In this document: positions 3,148 through 53,909 of the stretch, in pieces | Layout: every line of letters begins with the position of its first letter | How positions within the stretch are numbered: the stretch's first letter is position 1 | Assembly: GCA_947085465.1 (NCBI GenBank) | Contig: CAMTWQ010000015.1 | Location: 1,201 to 65,200, forward strand | Length of the DNA stretch: 64,000 nucleotides | Direction of reading: 5' to 3' | Origin: an uncultured Alphaproteobacteria bacterium | Lineage (GTDB): Bacteria; Pseudomonadota; Alphaproteobacteria; UBA11222 | Notes under the pieces: generated by a model | The model's database searches: none | Seen by the model: only the letters and a program-made list of their open reading frames with translations | Told to the model about the DNA's origin: nothing | Translations under genes and position numbers: made by a program

Positions 3148-4048
3148 AGAGCTTCAGGATGGCGTGAATGACCCGGTGCACGGGTGTTGGCACGCCTGCT
3201 TTTTCACCGAGCCGCACGACGCCGCCGGATAGCCAATCGACTTCCAGCCGGCGGCCATGCTCCAAATCTTCCAGCAAGGAAGGTTTCAAATTATGCGGCA
3301 TGCCCTGCGCCATGCGCAGGATTGATCCGGAATGCTCTTTGGGCAGAGTAATTCCCATGGCGCGGGCGACCGCTTCGGTTTCGCGCAGCGCATCGCCAAG
3401 CAGCCGCAGGCACTCGGGTTCCGCGCGCACAACGCCGATCGGCGCGCGCGCCAATCCCATAACACCGGAAAACGCCGCAACCAGGACGAATTTCGCCCAT
3501 AGGCTGCCGGTAATGTCGGGCTTGAAGCGCGCCTCGACCCCGGTTTTGGCGAACGCGCCGATGAGTGATTGCGCTCGCGCGCTCAAGCGTCCGTCAAGCT
3601 CGCCAAAATCAATGTGGCCCAGAGCGCCGAGATGGCGGATCAGGCCCGGCTCAACAATGTTGGCGGATACATAGGATGCGCCTGGCAAGATGCGCGCGCG
3701 GCCGATCTCCGGGCTGAGCATATCCATCACCTCAACGCCGTTTTGCAGGGTGACGATGAAGGTGTCCGGGCCAAGCAGCGGCGCCAGCATTTTTGCCGTT
3801 GTTTCGACATCATACAGCTTGACGCAATACAGCACGCAATCGACCGCGCCGATGCGCGTGGGATCATCGCTGGCGGTGACCGGATTAACCGCAAAATCAC
3901 CATTGGGGGATTCCACCCGCAAGCCATGCTCGCGCATCGCCGCCAGGTTTTTTCCGCGCGCAATGAATGCGACCTCTTCGCCCGCAAGCGCAAGCTTGCC
4001 GCCGAAATAGGCTCCCATTCCTCCCGTTCCAAAAATGGCGAATTTCAT
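3131..4048 (-). CDS. panE: 2-dehydropantoate 2-reductase (ApbA/PanE family)
   Basis: The N-terminus MKFAIFGTGGMGAYFGGKLALAG is a Rossmann motif, and length and overall pattern fit the family. Confidence 0.7.
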   Translation of the reverse strand: MKFAIFGTGGMGAYFGGKLALAGEEVAFIARGKNLAAMREHGLRVESPNGDFAVNPVTASDDPTRIGAVDCVLYCVKLYDVETTAKMLAPLLGPDTFIVTLQNGVEVMDMLSPEIGRARILPGASYVSANIVEPGLIRHLGALGHIDFGELDGRLSARAQSLIGAFAKTGVEARFKPDITGSLWAKFVLVAAFSGVMGLARAPIGVVRAEPECLRLLGDALRETEAVARAMGITLPKEHSGSILRMAQGMPHNLKPSLLEDLEHGRRLEVDWLSGGVVRLGEKAGVPTPVHRVIHAILKLYANGV

Positions 4049-6805: not shown

Positions 6806-8638
6806 GTGGACGGACTGGCAAGATTTTTTGATGCTATTTTTTCCGGCGTTTCATCTGCTTTCGGCGCGGTGTTGGGTCTAGCCCAGGCGGGCGTAAGCGG
6901 CATGTTTGGTTTGCTGCACGATCCACAGGTGGCGATAGCAAGCGCAATTGCGCTGCTGATCATTGCGGGTATCACACTCGTACGGTTCTTGTTTGGACGT
7001 ATCTTGCCGATCTCACAGGCCATTGCCCTGATCCGAGGCAAGATCGAAGAAACGCCTGACATGGCCGCCTTTGCGACAAATTTCGGCCGTTTTGATCTGG
7101 AGCTGAACGGGATCACGCCGCTGCGTCGCGCCTGGATGATGTTTCGTGCTGGGCTGGTGCTGCCGCCAGCGAATTCGCGCCTGCCGATCCGTTATAGCAG
7201 CCGCGCTGGCGACTATCTGCATCTGACGGCGCTAGAGTCGGGTGGTCTCAATTTCCGCTATTTTCAAGGCTGGGCGAATTATTTTCTTGGCATTGGCGTG
7301 CTGATTGCGTTTCTTGGCCTGTCGTCAGATCTGTATATGGCCAGCCTTCCGGCGTCACCGGATGCGCCGACGCCGGCGCATCTGCTTTCCGGCATGGCGT
7401 TCAAGGCGGTGCCGCTGATTTGCGGCATGCTTGGCTGGTTGTTGCTGACTTTCACCTATCGCAGCGCCGAGGAAATGCTGCGCGATGGGGTGCAGTCGCT
7501 GGCGCGCGCCATCGATGACCGGTTGCACTATCTGGCGCCGCAAAGCCTGTTGTCGCCCGAACGCGAAGGCTTGCGCGAGTTGGAGTTGCAGGCCGAACAC
7601 ATGCGCACATTATCGCGCGATATCGGCGCCTCGCTGCAACGGGTGGAGGTGCAGTTATCTGATACCTTGCCGGGGCGGATCGGCGAGGCGATGGGGCCGC
7701 TTGCCAATGCCATCGATCTGCTTGGAAAACGCCTGGCGGAAGCCAATACCGAGGCGCTGCGCAAGGCCGTTGGCGAACTTGCGGAGGGACTGCACGCAAG
7801 GGCGTCAGAAGATATCAGCGCATTATCGGATGTATTGTGCGAAGCCAGACTATCGATTGAAAGTGCTGGCGAGGCCATGCGTGACGCCAGCCATGTAATC
7901 CGCGATGCGGCGGGCGATGCGGGCGAGAATTTGCGTTCTGAACTCTCTCAAGCCGTGGTTTTGCTGGGTAATGGATTGGGCGGCGCCGGCGCCGAACTTG
8001 CAGCACAACTTTCATTGGTGTCGCAACATGCCGAGCGCGCTTTTGCGCCGCTGCCGCAACGGATTGGCGATCTGAGTGACATGCTGCAAACCATGAATTC
8101 ACGCATGGCGCAGCAAGGTGAGGCCTTTGCCTCGGTCATTACGCTGGCGCAGGCGGCGGTCAAGAGCCTGGGCGATTCGATGACACATATCCGCGAGGCA
8201 TCGCCTGCGTCCGCCACTGACGCAATTGTTGTGAGTGATCTGTCACGCGCAGCGCGCGATATTTCATCATCTGTTGAAACGGCAGGCGATGCGCGGCGTT
8301 TGTTGAAGCGGCTTTCTGAAAAGTTGCAGCAGCCGGCAACCCGCTTGATGAACGAGGATTGGTCATTGCACCTGCAATCGCTCGGTGACACCGACGCCAT
8401 GCTGACCGAGATTTTTGAGAATTTTCAGGAGAGCGCCACGCAACAGCGCGCGGCCCTTGACGCGGCAATAATTGAACTGGAAGGGCGGGTTGAACGTTTG
8501 TTCCGGGATCTTGATTCTGGCGTGGAGCGGCTGGAAAGCGCTATTGGCACAATCCGTGCTGGTTCTGGCACGACTATCGTTTCGCTAAGATCTGGAACAA
8601 TGCCGGCCGGCGAAACCCAGGATAGCGCTACCGGCTGA
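6806..8638 (+). CDS. hypothetical inner-membrane protein with a MotA/ExbB-like TM hairpin and a long alpha-helical tail
   Basis: GTG start. TM1 spans about aa 41-64. The TM2-TM3 hairpin (aa 155-217) contains NYFLGIGVLIAFLGL and GMAFKAVPLICGMLGWLL. Residues 220-610 are Ala/Leu/Glu/Arg-rich and helical. The family assignment is weak. Confidence 0.4.
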   Translation: MDGLARFFDAIFSGVSSAFGAVLGLAQAGVSGMFGLLHDPQVAIASAIALLIIAGITLVRFLFGRILPISQAIALIRGKIEETPDMAAFATNFGRFDLELNGITPLRRAWMMFRAGLVLPPANSRLPIRYSSRAGDYLHLTALESGGLNFRYFQGWANYFLGIGVLIAFLGLSSDLYMASLPASPDAPTPAHLLSGMAFKAVPLICGMLGWLLLTFTYRSAEEMLRDGVQSLARAIDDRLHYLAPQSLLSPEREGLRELELQAEHMRTLSRDIGASLQRVEVQLSDTLPGRIGEAMGPLANAIDLLGKRLAEANTEALRKAVGELAEGLHARASEDISALSDVLCEARLSIESAGEAMRDASHVIRDAAGDAGENLRSELSQAVVLLGNGLGGAGAELAAQLSLVSQHAERAFAPLPQRIGDLSDMLQTMNSRMAQQGEAFASVITLAQAAVKSLGDSMTHIREASPASATDAIVVSDLSRAARDISSSVETAGDARRLLKRLSEKLQQPATRLMNEDWSLHLQSLGDTDAMLTEIFENFQESATQQRAALDAAIIELEGRVERLFRDLDSGVERLESAIGTIRAGSGTTIVSLRSGTMPAGETQDSATG

Positions 8639-8650
8639 CCTCAACGGTTT

Positions 8651-8710
8651 TAGAGCAGCCCGCGATTATGTTCGAGCCTCATGGCTCGAACATAATGCAG
8701 ATTGCTCTAG
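8651..8710. repeat. hairpin repeat that combines an A-type left end with a B-type core and right end
   Basis: The sequence is tagagcagcccgcgattatgttcgagcctcatggctcgaacataatgcagattgctctag. Its core hairpin ttatgttcgagcc/ggctcgaacataa matches the units at 41799-41861 and 45582-45640. Confidence 0.8.
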
Positions 8711-11167: not shown

Positions 11168-11199
11168 CGGCGCATTGAATATAATTTAACACCCACTTA

Positions 11200-11410
11200 A
11201 GCTTTAGGTGTCCGTTGTGCGCAAGCGCAGCGGATGAAACGGGAAGCCGGTGCGTCTTTTGAAGCTTTCACGAGATAAACCCGGCACTGCCCCCGCAACG
11301 GTAAGCGAGTAAAGACGCCGCAGTACGCCACTGTGCATAGCATGGGAAGGCGCGGCGCCGGGGAATTTCCCCACTCGCGAGTCCGGAGACCGGCCTGAAG
11401 CCTATCGGAC
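11200..11410 (+). promoter_or_regulatory. cobalamin (B12) riboswitch
   Basis: The conserved core is present: gaaacgggaagccggtg (11236-11252), ccggcactgcccccgcaacggtaa (11281-11304) and gccactg...gggaaggc. A B12-box-like gagtccggagaccggcc lies at about 11379-11396. The element is directly 5' of btuB. Boundaries are approximate. Confidence 0.85.
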
Positions 11411-11527
11411 GGCATGCGGAGGGCAATGCTGCGGTACAGGCAGGCATTCGCCTTGTTCCTGTCGCGCATTTTTCTCCACCGCCATATTGCAATCTTAAAG
11501 CGCGCGGGTGTGCGCCAAGGAGAAACC

Positions 11528-13366
11528 ATGTCTTATCGTTGGATCTTGCCGGCGCTGATTTTGCTTGCGTCATCTGCTTCTATTGCAGCCGAAACAGTAA
11601 AAGAAAACCCGCTGGTGATTGTGGTGACGCCAACGCGAACGGCGAGGACGGCCGATGAGAGCCTGACGCCGGTCACGGTCATTACCCGTGCGGATATCGA
11701 GCATAAACAAGCGCAATCGACGCCTGAAATTCTTCGCGGCATTCCGGGCCTTACTCTGGCCAATAATGGCGGCCCTGGTAAAATCAGCTCGGTGTTTTTG
11801 CGCGGCACGAATTCTGATCATGTGCTGGTGCTGGTGGATGGGATCAAGCTTGGCTCGGCAACAGCTGGAACCACGGCGTTCGAGCATATTCCAGTGGAGC
11901 AGATCGAGCGCATCGAAGTGGTGCGCGGGCCACGCTCGTCGCTGTATGGCTCCGAAGCGATCGGCGGCGTGATCCAGATTTTCACCCGCAAGGGCGGCGG
12001 AAAATTCACCCCCTCGTTCAGCGTCACCGGCGGCAGTTATGAAACCGGACAGGCAACGGCGGGCGTCAGCGGCGGCGGCGATCACGCCTGGTATAATTTC
12101 AACGCCAGCGGCAGCGACACACAGGGGTTTAACTCTTGTGACGGACGGCCCGCGCCATTTGCCGGATGCGGCGCATTTGAGCCCGACGATGATGGCTATC
12201 GCACGGTTTCCGGCAATGCGCGCGGCGGGTATCGATTTGATAATGGGGCCGAGCTTGACGCCCATTGGCTGCGCGCCAAAGGCAAAAACTTTTTCGATGG
12301 TTTTTTCAACGAATCAAAAACCGTGCAACAGGTGATCGGCGGCGGCGCGAAGTTTTCGCCGGTGAAAATCTGGAACGTCACGGTGCTCGGCGGGCGCAGT
12401 AATGACAAACTGGACAGTTTCAATAACGGCGCGTTCCTGACCCGCTTTGACACCAAACGCGACAATGTTTCGGTGCAGAATGATTTTACCATGGCGCCGC
12501 GCCATGTGGTGACGCTCGGCGGCGACTATCAGAAAGACCGCATTGATGTCATCACCTTTGCGCCATTCCCCGTTACCTCACGCGGCAACAAGGCGCTGTT
12601 CGCGCAATATCAGGCAGGTTTCGGGCGGTATGATTTCGAGTTGAGCGCGCGTGGTGATGACAATGAACAATTTGGTAATTACGCCACCGGCAGCGCGGCG
12701 TGGGGAATGAATATAAGTGATGGATTGCGCGCCATAGCGTCATATGGAACCGCATTCAAGGCGCCGACATTTAACGATCTGTATTTTCCGTTCTCCGGCA
12801 ATCCCGCGCTTGATCCAGAAACATCCCGCAGCGCCGAAATCGGTTTGCGCAGCGGGCATCCGCTAGGCCCGTGGGCGGTCAATCTGTTTGAAACGCACAT
12901 TGATGATCTGATCGCCTCCACCGCGCCATTATTTCTGCGCACGAATATCAATTCAGCCCGCATTCGCGGCCTGGAACTGGAAACCAGCGCCAGGATCGAG
13001 GATTGGCGGGCCAATGCGACGCTGAGCCTGCTTGATCCGGAAAACCGCTCCGATGGGCCTAATCGCGGCAACCTGCTGCCCCGGCGCGCGCGGCAGTCCT
13101 TGCAGGTTGATCTGGACTATGACATTACCCGCCTATCCTCGGTTGGTATCAGCGTGCTGGGAGAAGGATCGCGTTATGACAATTTGGCGAACACCCAGAA
13201 GATGGGCCGTTACGCCACCGTCGATCTGCGGGCCGGACATCGGATCGCTAAAAACTGGCTGTTACAGGGCAAGGCCGTTAATCTGCTGGACGCGGATTAT
13301 GAAACAGTGGATTTCTTCAATCCGGCTGGCCGTAGCTTGTTTCTTACGCTACGGTATGAGCACTGA
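11528..13366 (+). CDS. btuB: TonB-dependent vitamin B12 outer-membrane receptor
   Basis: The start is ATG 11528, preceded by aaggaga. It has a signal peptide, the TonB box PLVIVVTPTR, plug motifs (IEVVRGPRSSLYGSEAIGGVIQIFT), and the riboswitch upstream. Confidence 0.85.
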   Translation: MSYRWILPALILLASSASIAAETVKENPLVIVVTPTRTARTADESLTPVTVITRADIEHKQAQSTPEILRGIPGLTLANNGGPGKISSVFLRGTNSDHVLVLVDGIKLGSATAGTTAFEHIPVEQIERIEVVRGPRSSLYGSEAIGGVIQIFTRKGGGKFTPSFSVTGGSYETGQATAGVSGGGDHAWYNFNASGSDTQGFNSCDGRPAPFAGCGAFEPDDDGYRTVSGNARGGYRFDNGAELDAHWLRAKGKNFFDGFFNESKTVQQVIGGGAKFSPVKIWNVTVLGGRSNDKLDSFNNGAFLTRFDTKRDNVSVQNDFTMAPRHVVTLGGDYQKDRIDVITFAPFPVTSRGNKALFAQYQAGFGRYDFELSARGDDNEQFGNYATGSAAWGMNISDGLRAIASYGTAFKAPTFNDLYFPFSGNPALDPETSRSAEIGLRSGHPLGPWAVNLFETHIDDLIASTAPLFLRTNINSARIRGLELETSARIEDWRANATLSLLDPENRSDGPNRGNLLPRRARQSLQVDLDYDITRLSSVGISVLGEGSRYDNLANTQKMGRYATVDLRAGHRIAKNWLLQGKAVNLLDADYETVDFFNPAGRSLFLTLRYEH

Positions 13367-40233: not shown

Positions 40234-41136
40234 ATGTCGATCCGGTTTGATGGCAAAGTCGCGATTATCACCGGCGCGGGCGGCGGGCTGGGGCGTTCAC
40301 ACGCGCTGCAACTGGCCCAGCTTGGCGCAAAGGTCGTGGTCAACGATCTGGGTGGCAATGTCGATGGCACAGGCGGCTCCAGCGAGGCGGCCGCAAAGGT
40401 TGTTGCCGAGATCAAGGCGGCGGGCGGCCAGGCGATCGCCAACGGCTCCAGCGTCACCGATAAGCAGGGTGTGGAAAACCTCGTCAAACAGGCCATGGAC
40501 GCCTATGGCCGCATCGATCTGCTGGTCAATAATGCGGGCATTTTGCGCGACAAAAGCTTTGCCAAAGTATCGCTTGAGGATTTTCAGCTCATCGTCGATG
40601 TGCATCTGATGGGCGCTGTCTATGTGACCAAAGCGGTATGGCCCATCATGATTGAACAGAATTATGGCCGCATCGTCATGGTTACGTCGGGCAGCGGCCT
40701 GTTTGGAAATTTCGGCCAGACCAATTACGCCGCCGCCAAGCTTGGCCAGGTCGGACTGATGAACGCGCTGAAACAGGAAGGCCGCAAGTATAACATCAAG
40801 GTCAACACGCTGGCCCCGATTGCCGCGACGCGCATGACCGAGGCCATCATGCCGCCCCAGGCGCTTGCAGCGCTAAAGCCGGAACTAGTCTCGCCCGCCG
40901 TTCTGTTCATGCTGAGCGAGGACGCGCCCAATGGCGTCATCATTACCGCCGGAGCTGGTTTCTTTGCCGCCGTCAAGACGATTGAGGCGCAAGGCATGCT
41001 GATCCCGGGCGCCGTGAGCGCCGATGACGTGGCCGCCAATTGGGATACGATCAGCGACTTCAACAACGCAGTCACCTATGAAAGCGTCAATGACGGCACC
41101 GGCCGGGTGTTCAAACTCTTGTCCGGCAAGGCCTGA
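40234..41136 (+). CDS. SDR family oxidoreductase, MFE-2/3-hydroxyacyl-CoA dehydrogenase-like
   Basis: It has GKVAIITGAGGGLGRSHAL...VVVNDLGG, NNAG and YAAAKLG motifs. Confidence 0.75.
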   Translation: MSIRFDGKVAIITGAGGGLGRSHALQLAQLGAKVVVNDLGGNVDGTGGSSEAAAKVVAEIKAAGGQAIANGSSVTDKQGVENLVKQAMDAYGRIDLLVNNAGILRDKSFAKVSLEDFQLIVDVHLMGAVYVTKAVWPIMIEQNYGRIVMVTSGSGLFGNFGQTNYAAAKLGQVGLMNALKQEGRKYNIKVNTLAPIAATRMTEAIMPPQALAALKPELVSPAVLFMLSEDAPNGVIITAGAGFFAAVKTIEAQGMLIPGAVSADDVAANWDTISDFNNAVTYESVNDGTGRVFKLLSGKA

Positions 41137-41147
41137 TTAACGCGATC

Positions 41148-41699
41148 CTATTCCACGGTGATCGTAATCGGCGCGGAATACACCGGAGTCTTGTGCGGGA
41201 TATGATTGTGGTCGCCCAGCAGCAATTGCAATGTGTGCCTGCCAGGAGCCAACTCCAGCATTGCTTCGGTCTGCCCGCCGCCGAAATGCAGGTGTTGCGG
41301 ATCTTTCGCGATAGCTTCATTGAGCGTTTCACCGGCAGGTAACGGCGCATCCACCAGCAAATGGTGATGGCCGGTATTTTCCTTCTCAACGCCTGCGGGC
41401 GCAACCCCCATGCCGCGCATGCCAAACACCACCTGCACGGGCGACTTGAGCTTGGCGCCATCCGCCGGGCTGATGAAATACACCTTGGCGCCATCCGGGA
41501 CTGGGGTCTCGCCCGCCTGTACAGGCGAAATCAGCCACAACACGACGGCTGCAACGCCGCTTAGACCATTTCCTGATCGGATTGAATCAATCCGATCAGG
41601 AAATGGTCTAACACATTCAAATAGAGCCTTTCTTATCCGGTCAGGTTGGTTCAACCTGACCGGGAAAGGCTCTAGCAGACTGCTCACATCTTTTTTCAC
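41148..41699 (-). CDS. DUF4399-domain secreted protein whose signal-peptide region is interrupted by a repeat element
   Basis: The start is GTG 41699 with GGAG 8 nt upstream. The GHHHLLVD motif is present. The N-terminus reads MKKDVSSL, then a 37-38 aa repeat-encoded segment, then SGVAAVVLWLISPVQA|GETP. Confidence 0.65.
   Translation of the reverse strand: MKKDVSSLLEPFPVRLNQPDRIRKALFECVRPFPDRIDSIRSGNGLSGVAAVVLWLISPVQAGETPVPDGAKVYFISPADGAKLKSPVQVVFGMRGMGVAPAGVEKENTGHHHLLVDAPLPAGETLNEAIAKDPQHLHFGGGQTEAMLELAPGRHTLQLLLGDHNHIPHKTPVYSAPITITVE
41562..41675. repeat. composite hairpin repeat (C unit, linker, D unit)
   Basis: The C unit (41562-41610) is a perfect 24-bp-arm palindrome, tagaccatttcctgatcggattga-a-tcaatccgatcaggaaatggtcta. 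The linker is acacattcaaa. The D unit (41622-41675) is tagagcctttcttatccggtcaggttg..caacctgaccgggaaaggctctag. Confidence 0.85.
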
Positions 41700-41722
41700 T
41701 GCATATTCTCCATGTTTTCCAT

Positions 41723-41861
41723 TAGAGCAGCCCGCATTTAAGTGGAGTCACTTTGTGCCCCCAGTTAAATGCGGAAAGCTGCTCTAACACATTAAAATCT
41801 AGAGCAATTTTCTTTATTAAGTTCGAGCCTCATGGCTCGAACTTAATGCAGATTGCTCTAG
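41723..41861. repeat. composite hairpin repeat (A unit, linker, B unit)
   Basis: The A unit (41723-41786) is tagagcagcccgcatttaagtgg...ccagttaaatgcggaaagctgctcta. The linker is acacattaaaat. The B unit (41799-41861) is ctagagcaattttctttattaagttcgagcctcatggctcgaacttaatgcagattgctctag. Confidence 0.85.
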
Positions 41862-42500
41862 CGCCAGCGCTGTGCGAAACCCGGTTTCAGGACTGCTCCA
41901 AATAGGTATATCAATATCTTTGCATAAGGCGATAGCTGGCTCCATCGAGGCCTGCGCCAGCAGGATCAATTCGGTGGTCATCGATACGCCGCGCAATCCA
42001 AGCGCGACTGTGCGATAATAGGCGTCCAGGTCGCCGCGCTCAAACAACGGCCAGGCGCTGAGGAATAAATGATCGGTCACGATCACGCTTGGCTGCTTTA
42101 AATATTCGGCGGATGAGCGCACCAGGCTAGCAGTGGCGCTAACGGCCGTAGCCAGCGTGCCGCACACCGCAATATGCCTTGTGTGCAACACGGCCTGATC
42201 CGCCATTGGGCGATCGATGCGCAACACCGGAATCGGCGCATCCGCATCAAACGCTTCCGCCACCGGCCCAAGCGTCGAGCAGGTGCAAATGAGCACATGC
42301 GCTTCTGGCGTCAAGGCTCCCGTCATTGCTTCAAACGCTGCTTCCTGCACCAGACCGGTAATGCCCCCTTGCGCCACCGCCAGGCTGAGCAAATCCTCAC
42401 GCACCACATGACGCACGCCAATCTCGGGGGCAATCCGGTCGCGCAATGCGTCAAATGTGGCGACGTGAACATCTGAGGTGTGCAGAAAAACGATCGTCAT
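41817..42500 (-). CDS. Asp/Glu/hydantoin-racemase-superfamily protein (arylmalonate-decarboxylase-like)
   Basis: The protein is 227 aa with MTIVFLHTSDVH and ICTCSTLGP motifs. The last 15 codons (LEQSALSSSHEART) and the stop codon lie inside repeat unit B. Confidence 0.45.
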   Translation of the reverse strand: MTIVFLHTSDVHVATFDALRDRIAPEIGVRHVVREDLLSLAVAQGGITGLVQEAAFEAMTGALTPEAHVLICTCSTLGPVAEAFDADAPIPVLRIDRPMADQAVLHTRHIAVCGTLATAVSATASLVRSSAEYLKQPSVIVTDHLFLSAWPLFERGDLDAYYRTVALGLRGVSMTTELILLAQASMEPAIALCKDIDIPIWSSPETGFRTALALEQSALSSSHEART

Positions 42501-45581: not shown

Positions 45582-45717
45582 AGAGCAATCTGCATTAAGT
45601 TCGAGCCACGAGGCTCGAACTTAATAAAGAAAATTGCTTGATTTTAATGTGTTAGAGCAGCTTTCCGCGATTAAGTGGGGGCACGACGTGACTCCACTTA
45701 ATCGCGGGCTGCTCTAG
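45582..45717. repeat. composite hairpin repeat (B-linker-A, inverted relative to 41723-41861)
   Basis: The reverse complement aligns with 41723-41861 along its whole length, with a few substitutions and a 3-nt deletion. The linker acacattaaaat is identical. Confidence 0.85.
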
Positions 45718-53759: not shown

Positions 53760-53909
53760 TAGACCATTTCCTGATTGGATTGAATCAATCCGTTCAGGAT
53801 AAAAATGGCCTAATACATTAATTTAGAGCCTTTCTTATCCTGTCAGGTTGGTCTCGCCACGGCGAAGCCGTAGGCGTAGCCGGGTCAACCTGACAGGGAA
53901 AGGCTCTGG
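53760..53909. repeat. composite hairpin repeat (degenerate C unit, linker, D unit with a loop insertion)
   Basis: The C-like unit is tagaccatttcctgattggattgaatcaatccgttcagg...ggccta. The linker is atacattaatt. The D-like unit tagagcctttcttatcctgtcaggttg...caacctgacagggaaaggctctgg has about 34 nt of nested hairpin in its loop. Confidence 0.8.

Follow-up and report, generated by a model that had tools for sequence, protein, structure and literature searches.

The DUF4399 Gene and Its Insert

The stretch of DNA analyzed here (64 kb of a contig from an uncultured member of the Alphaproteobacteria; hereafter the window) carries on its minus strand a DUF4399 gene whose signal-peptide coding region is interrupted, in frame, by a composite palindromic repeat that is missing from another strain of the same species. 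The gene (41148..41699) starts with GTG and encodes a small, putatively periplasmic protein of 183 amino acids, or 146 without the insert. An NCBI contig of 69,326 bp is recorded with exactly this 183-residue product, whose residues 90–183 match the Pfam profile DUF4399 (PF14347) with E = 1.1e-34 over profile positions 1–91 of 91. A Shine-Dalgarno-like GGAG (41708..41711, minus strand) lies 8 nt 5' of the GTG at 41699–41697. An initial annotation of this DNA had placed the start codon and the ribosome-binding motif of the open reading frame (ORF) just so, and both can be read directly in the sequence.

The first eight codons (MKKDVSSL; 41676..41699, minus strand) are native and gave the original signal peptide its basic n-region. 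Codons 47–62 (SGVAAVVLWLISPVQA; 41514..41561, minus strand), also native, supply the hydrophobic core and the c-region up to a predicted cleavage site, VQA^GE, in which the caret marks the scissile bond. Between the two lies the composite insert (41562..41674, minus strand), which consists, in gene-strand order, of a module that we call C, a linker, and a module that we call D; the C-linker-D structure reported in the initial annotation is present, with a linker of 11 nt. Module C (41622..41674) is a 53-nt imperfect palindrome of the form TAGAGCC...GGCTCTA. Module D (41562..41610) is a 49-nt palindrome, TAGACC...GGTCTA, whose arms are complementary at 25 of 25 positions, and because it is so nearly perfect it translates to almost the same peptide, RPFPDRI(D/E)SIRSGNGL, on either strand. 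The linker, ACACATTCAAA on the plus strand (41611..41621), has homologues in related composites of the window, reading ACACATTAAAATC in those built from modules A and B and ATACATTAATT in a second C-D copy. The C and D module patterns each gave 0 matches in 100 shuffles. [quoted passage not shown]

In net terms the insertion adds 111 nt, equivalent to 37 codons (codons 10–46, encoding LEPFPVRLNQPDRIRKALFECVRPFPDRIDSIRSGNG and a shared Leu), with borders that are ambiguous by up to 3 nt. Its base composition (GC 0.45, and 0.32 at third codon positions) is well apart from that of the rest of the gene (0.59 and 0.69, respectively). A spurious ORF of 125 amino acids on the plus strand (41410–41787) spans the whole C-D element.

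An Empty Allele and the Age of the Insertion

Removal of the 111 nt in silico gives MKKDVSSLLSGVAAVVLWLISPVQA, and a real allele of that form exists. The best match in a collection of 5.8 billion proteins (P0001) is 146 residues long, that is, 183 less 37; it begins MKKNVSSLLSGVAAVVLWLITPVQAGETP, and its leader reads MKKNVSSLLSGVAAVVLWLITPVQA^GETP across the cleavage site. Its first eight residues differ from MKKDVSSL by a single substitution, D4N. The contig that encodes it (L001; Logan, SRR22388276) shows a lone gap of exactly 111 nt relative to the window and is 98.4% identical to it over the 923 nt of remaining flanking sequence, an identity high enough to assign it to a strain of the window's species. 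The excision product predicted in the initial annotation therefore has a natural counterpart, and the proposed in-frame insertion between a basic n-region and a hydrophobic core is borne out by a same-species allele without exactly these 37 codons.

Eight orthologous loci in alphaproteobacterial metagenome-assembled genomes (MAGs), 68–81% identical, encode leaders of 22–25 amino acids that contain no 37-codon segment and are of textbook form, as is that of the empty allele; in all eight the cleavage motif A-x-A^G(E/D)TP occupies the corresponding position. The alignment of orthologues that had been proposed as a check on the insertion was thus carried out, with the 37 codons missing from the empty allele and from the eight nearest orthologues alike. 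Taken together with the AT-rich composition of the insert, the empty allele and the insert-free orthologues indicate that the 111-nt insertion is derived, young, and polymorphic within the species.

It is highly improbable that the filled gene is an assembly artefact, or that the other strain lost an ancestral stretch of 37 codons by precise deletion. The repeat family does disturb assemblies: two short-read contigs from related samples (L058, ending at 3852, and L085, ending at 1385) both stop inside module A and are uninformative on the DUF4399 site of those samples. Their ends mark the repeats as assembly breakpoints in metagenomes of this lineage. Misassembly at repeats, however, joins unrelated flanks, whereas here the same gene lies on both sides, in frame and with base-exact junctions, and the filled product is on record from a 69-kb contig. 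As for deletion, the segment is missing from the eight outgroup orthologues and the composition of the insert is foreign, so that insertion is the derived state.

The Translation Start and the Upstream Neighbor

Upstream of the DUF4399 gene, on the same strand, lies a gene of the Asp/Glu racemase family (41817..42500; Pfam PF01177). The racemase orthologues end in ...ALALIDYEEKTA, and their TGA stop codon overlaps the ATG of the DUF4399 gene in an ATGA stop/start overlap; GAGGAG precedes this ATG at the position equivalent to the GGAG of the window. In the window the overlap has been lost to another composite repeat, of type A-B (41723..41860, with B at 41723–41786, a linker, and A at 41800–41860). 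This 136-nt insertion shifted the racemase frame and placed a new stop codon inside module A, so that the module supplies the last 13 codons of the racemase (EQSALSSSHEART) and its stop in place of the last 9 residues (MENMENMQ and stop), and it destroyed the GTGA overlap, a coupling of the two genes found in all relatives. The A-B insertion is older than that of the C-D element, since the empty allele, too, has module B upstream of it. When the A-B element is excised in silico, the racemase ends in ...ALALMENMENMQ and its stop again overlaps GTG 41699 as GTGA, mirroring the ATGA of the relatives. The overlap, kept in relatives and restored by excision in the window, argues for a start that precedes the C-D element, and this comparative evidence supports GTG 41699 as the start of the DUF4399 ORF.

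If the start were misannotated, and translation began inside or downstream of the element, the repeat would lie in the 5' untranslated region, as often happens with "N-terminal" intragenic repeats. General caution on this point is advised in the literature on repetitive extragenic palindromic (REP) sequences (PMC3733652), and in-frame candidates exist, namely TTG at codon 16 and GTG/TTG at codons 53–54. The former lacks a spaced Shine-Dalgarno sequence; the latter would leave just 9 residues before the cleavage site and no n-region. By contrast, the empty allele has as its native N-terminus the eight residues that precede the insert, and GGAG and GTG are placed exactly as are GAGGAG and the ATG overlapping the upstream stop in relatives. 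Judged by these features, starts downstream of GTG 41699 are not credible, and we regard a misannotated start as highly improbable. A scan of 41100–42000 for promoters and terminators found none.

Mode of Insertion

Pairs of empty and filled sites were recovered for three copies of the repeat family: the DUF4399 site (L001), an A-B composite at 45582–45716 (L058), and the second C-D composite at 53760–53906 (L084). Copies were oriented as [B or D]-linker-[A or C] for comparison of their junctions. With carets marking the borders, the filled sites read flank^TAGA(G/C)C...GCTC^ followed by TAG, TTG, and TGG, and their empty counterparts T^CAG, C^TTG, and C^TGG. The left-hand TAG is invariant, whereas the right-hand dinucleotide (TA, TT, or TG) varies with the target; the filled and empty junctions thus identify the right-hand "TA" as target sequence and the left-hand TAG as part of the element. 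Among the copies of the family, the base at position −1 is a pyrimidine in 13 of 13, and the triplet after ...GCTC is TAG in 9 of 11. All three pairs fit seamless insertion with at most one substitution each, and one of them fits at 24 of 24 positions, the sample being small. Seen on the gene strand, seamless insertion would place the copies directly 3' of CTA, CAA, or CCA, and the element itself terminates in CTA. Both elements in this operon sit after a CTA codon (GCG CTA^ATG and CTG CTA^AGC).

The initial annotation had described the repeat as flanked by TA...TA and had removed it as "element plus one TA." The flanks are present and the length of 111 nt is correct, but a target-site duplication is not demonstrated, and the implied mechanism fails at the empty sites, none of which (0 of 3) has TA at the junction; a TA-duplication model of the IS630 or Correia type was rejected on the same count. 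Models with duplication of 3 nt (TAG) or 4 nt (YTAG) require more substitutions than does seamless insertion and were likewise set aside. For the three junctions the simplest model is seamless insertion with a pyrimidine on one side and a TAG-like triplet on the other, and mobilization would then resemble the single-strand, HUH-type process of IS200/IS605 and REP/RAYT systems more than TA-duplicating cut-and-paste transposition.

Coding Behavior of the Repeat

Two of the six reading frames through the C-D copy in the DUF4399 gene are open. In the gene-strand orientation one frame of three is stop-free, and it is the one used by the ORF, so the chance of an open, in-frame outcome in this orientation can be put at about 1 in 3 and the surviving ORF is unremarkable. 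A 41-residue query covering the insert found, among 5.8 billion protein representatives, none with even three 5-residue words in common; as D encodes the same peptide on both strands, reverse insertions of D in that frame fall within the scope of the search as well. Neither the second C-D copy nor the A-B composite has any open frame, and the window's remaining copies, three or four in number, either lie between genes or terminate an ORF.

A unique peptide and mostly closed frames mean that the family is not adapted to coding sequence; by this comparison the in-frame coding insertion is one event and not a family trait. The behavior had initially been likened to that of the Rickettsia palindromic elements (RPEs). 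For this one event the likeness stands, but it does not extend to the family, given the unique peptide, the two open frames of six in this C-D copy, and the lack of any in A-B and the second C-D.

Consequences for the Signal Peptide and for Expression

The insert separates the MKKDVSSL n-region from the core and c-region, SGVAAVVLWLISPVQA^GE, and lies entirely upstream of the VQA^G cleavage site. The core and the cleavage site are intact, with a peak in mean Kyte-Doolittle hydropathy of 3.04 at residues 49–57. The new n-region comprises 45 residues, of which 9 are basic and 6 acidic (net charge +3), and includes two arginines near the core, R36 and R41, the second of them 6 residues before it. 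Because the insert lies ahead of the signal-peptidase site, cleavage would discard it along with the rest of the leader and leave the mature protein unchanged; and since the DUF4399 domain begins at residue 90, the insert is outside the folded domain. At the RNA level, two hairpins of 23–24 bp are predicted from 26 nt past the start codon, with a folding energy of −96.8 kcal/mol over 191 nt (z = −11.5). Rare codons, among them CTA, AGG, AGA, and ATA, are abundant in the element.

The explanation that we favor, and consider probable as a whole, is that of a recent in-frame repeat insertion that is tolerated. A non-autonomous, two-hairpin mobile repeat (C-linker-D) inserted directly after CTA codon 9, so recently that the empty site survives in another strain of the species. 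The ORF has stayed open through luck and survivorship, and not because the element is designed for coding. The protein would most likely still be made from GTG 41699 and exported via a signal peptide lengthened, in its n-region, to 62 residues, presumably at the cost of lower expression imposed by the two mRNA hairpins and the rare codons. The allele would then segregate as a neutral-to-mildly-deleterious polymorphism.

Several observations weigh against this explanation. An n-region of 45 residues with six acidic ones is far from typical, and targeting could be impaired. Perfect duplexes of 23–24 bp within a coding sequence (CDS) may be substrates for RNase III or may stall ribosomes, in which case the gene may be effectively silenced. 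Just two alleles are known, and the 7 differences between their CDSs (3 synonymous, 4 non-synonymous) give no power for the detection of relaxed selection (dN/dS). At the DUF4399 junction the window has CTA where the empty allele has CTG, a synonymous difference that costs every model of insertion one substitution. Finally, HUH-like seamless mobilization draws on three junctions, and no transposase is found among the ORFs of the window.

Carried further, the first two of these points would make the gene functionally dead, a pseudogene in the making whose leader blocks Sec targeting or whose hairpins cause cleavage or stalling, and whose ORF is open only because the event is recent. We regard this as unlikely, although it deserves serious consideration. 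At 98.4% identity to the strain with the empty site, the insertion is so young that decay would not yet be visible; the stability of the hairpins and the acidic residues point in the same direction; and the earlier A-B insertion, which removed translational coupling in the operon, fits a locus under weak selection. On the other side, the element itself adds the basic residues R36 and R41 near the core and leaves the net charge positive, and in autotransporters naturally long Sec signal sequences that carry N-terminal extensions are functional (PMC2805444). The native GGAG and GTG are also intact, no frameshift or stop has accumulated, and the Pfam domain is matched from end to end.

The same hairpins could instead be read as a gain. 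In an exaptation of the RPE kind, the insert would have been co-opted, whether to serve as a functional new leader peptide or to regulate in cis as an RNA structure, for instance a switch of translation or stability within the first 140 nt of the mRNA. The perfect D palindrome (25/25), the open ORF, and the very stable fold (z = −11.5) would fit such a role. Youth alone, however, predicts a perfect palindrome. The insert peptide recurs in no other protein representative of the 5.8 billion, the intergenic C-D copy is closed in all frames, A-B has no open frame, and the insertion is polymorphic within the species. Co-option therefore seems to us very unlikely.

Other Copies and the Wider Repeat Family

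The second C-D composite (53760..53906) is intergenic, between rplY (L25) and pth (peptidyl-tRNA hydrolase), in agreement with the initial annotation, which had noted an intergenic copy here. It is about 87–96% identical, piecewise, to the copy in the DUF4399 gene but more degenerate, and it has approximately 33 extra nucleotides (TCTCGCCACGGCGAAGCCGTAGGCGTAGCCGGG) in the loop of module C, a block that may be a nested insertion. A sister strain lacks it (L084:640–760; net difference 147 nt, flanks identical at 24 of 24 positions). The second A-B composite (45582..45716) has the opposite orientation to the first and degenerate termini, CAAGAGC and GCTTG. It is missing from a 97%-identical Logan contig (L058:1–140, SRR22387807; net 134 nt), so several loci are polymorphic for presence or absence of the repeat family within the species. 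A solo module at 8651..8709 is chimeric, with a B-like outer arm (TAGAGCAGCCCGCGATTA) and an A-like core and other arm, which suggests recombination or template switching between modules. It adjoins the 3' side of an ORF at 6806–8638 that encodes a 610-residue protein with a sub-threshold match to the anti-phage protein ZorA (102 bits against a cut-off of 190; MotA-like).

Across the family, modules measure 49–64 nt and have termini of the (C/T)TAGAGC...GCTCTA type, and pairs of modules are joined via the linker ACACATTnAA(n1-3), which is conserved. Metagenome contigs scanned for the junction pattern yielded eight from JGI with A-B composites at 84–97% identity. Two contigs from JGI Ga0182030 with a GC content of 0.68–0.70 (L060, at 47–98 and 3384–3435, and L071, at 1415–1518) combine TAGAGC termini and a ACACATTGAATC linker with unrelated hairpin interiors, and one hairpin of L071 has 80–88% matches on replicons of Rhizobium sp. 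CB3090 and Methylobacterium nodulans. From these sequences the two-hairpin architecture seems to belong to a wider alphaproteobacterial superfamily.

The orthologous loci of related MAGs contain no member of the repeat family. A search of the whole window against Rfam at gathering thresholds returned no repeat family and only a cobalamin riboswitch, at 11189–11412 (119 bits), which is directly 5' of a gene for a TonB-dependent vitamin B12 receptor (11414–13366), an ordinary arrangement. Relaxing the threshold to E ≤ 10 over 41400–41950 added generic hairpin (miRNA-model) noise far below threshold. The repeat cluster gave no blastn match at 1e-3, and noise at E ≤ 10, against 72,556 plasmids that include rhizobial megaplasmids; a link to the repeats of those megaplasmids is accordingly not detectable. 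Screens of the 57 ORFs in the window against Pfam or NCBIfam found no transposase of any kind, all of the genes being ordinary chromosomal ones, and neither the window nor the related loci fetched held a candidate for an autonomous, TnpA-encoding partner element. A limited literature search found no published description of the family.

Comparison with Known Systems

In-frame fusions are not unusual among intragenic MITEs, and RPEs are the extreme case (PMC10969869). As summarized in that source (from Ogata et al. 2000, 2002), RPEs resemble the C-D element in being palindromic repeats of approximately 100–150 bp, found in an alphaproteobacterium, that can lie in frame within a gene, leave the ORF open, and add a foreign peptide; the DUF4399 insert is likewise a palindromic insertion of 111 nt, or 37 codons, without a stop. 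In the same summary, RPE families occupy many genes and encode conserved peptides, whereas here there is one event, a unique peptide, and mostly closed frames. The insert also lies in a cleaved leader and not in a folded protein, as set against RPEs by their description and not by sequence.

The closest published precedent for the location of the insert is in Yersinia pestis, where the repeat RU-2 forms part of the predicted signal peptide of YPO1552 (Delihas 2007, PMC2759123). There the repeat provides the start codon and first 30 residues, as a 5' fusion; the DUF4399 element, in contrast, is internal and splits the n-region from the h-region, and it has an empty allele that documents the states before and after insertion.

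REP sequences, with the related BIMEs and REPINs, share with the present family the tagged hairpins, the arrangement of pairs with linkers as mosaics, an occasional intragenic location, and seamless HUH-type mobilization, which is thought likely. Intragenic REP dimers add 20–30 residues and are thought to be harmless at protein termini (Di Nocera et al. 2013, PMC3733652). REPs are defined, however, as imperfect palindromes of 20–40 bp tagged with GTAG or CGTC (PMC3733652); the modules here are 49–64 nt long and bear the tag (C/T)TAGAGC, and no gene for a RAYT (Y1/HUH) transposase is present among the 57 ORFs of the window. IS200/IS605 elements and their miniature derivatives, PATEs (mechanism in PMC3201880 and PMC6006769), also have a hairpin at each end, make no target duplication, and insert beside a short specific sequence, a likeness in insertion that is drawn from three junctions here and from copies with no identified TnpA/TnpB partner. 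Their hairpins are subterminal, unlike those of the present family, which reach the very ends and whose outer arms are alike, resembling terminal inverted repeats.

Correia/NEMIS elements and MITEs of the IS630/mariner type are similarly short, with inverted ends and apparent TA flanks, and sometimes interrupt or extend genes. They duplicate TA, whereas the right-hand "TA" of the present family is target TT or TG at two of the three sites. Mosaic palindromes built of combinable modules are also found among rhizobial alphaproteobacteria, as the RIMEs, Sm-repeats, and AB/C palindromes of Sinorhizobium meliloti mentioned in PMC2573895, with which we compare our family by description only. RIMEs differ in being described as intergenic, and the repeat cluster matched none of the 72,556 plasmids, rhizobial megaplasmids among them.

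Significance of the Insertion

The literature already records repeats inserted in frame, one of them in a signal peptide, and the present case adds no new principle. What is new is the host lineage, the repeat family (insofar as our limited search found no published description), and an empty allele for an internal split of a signal peptide. The three base-exact empty sites constrain how the repeat family moves. A more ambitious reading would make the A-B and C-D composites an undescribed alphaproteobacterial superfamily of two-hairpin mosaic elements, with YTAGAGC termini, an ACACATTnAA linker, and relatives on high-GC metagenome contigs and on Rhizobium and Methylobacterium replicons, that moves seamlessly into YTAG-like sites by means of a single-strand HUH-type transposase, and would have the 62-residue Sec leader still functional; as a whole we consider it unlikely. 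If it is true, an n-region can absorb 37 arbitrary residues.

The two alleles show one gene of one species before and after the event, first without and then with a foreign block of 37 codons between the charged head and the hydrophobic core, and such a natural pair offers a ready test of the tolerance of a Sec leader in its n-region. For the repeat family, the DUF4399 insertion illustrates how small mobile repeats can persist in genes by landing in a part of the protein that is discarded.

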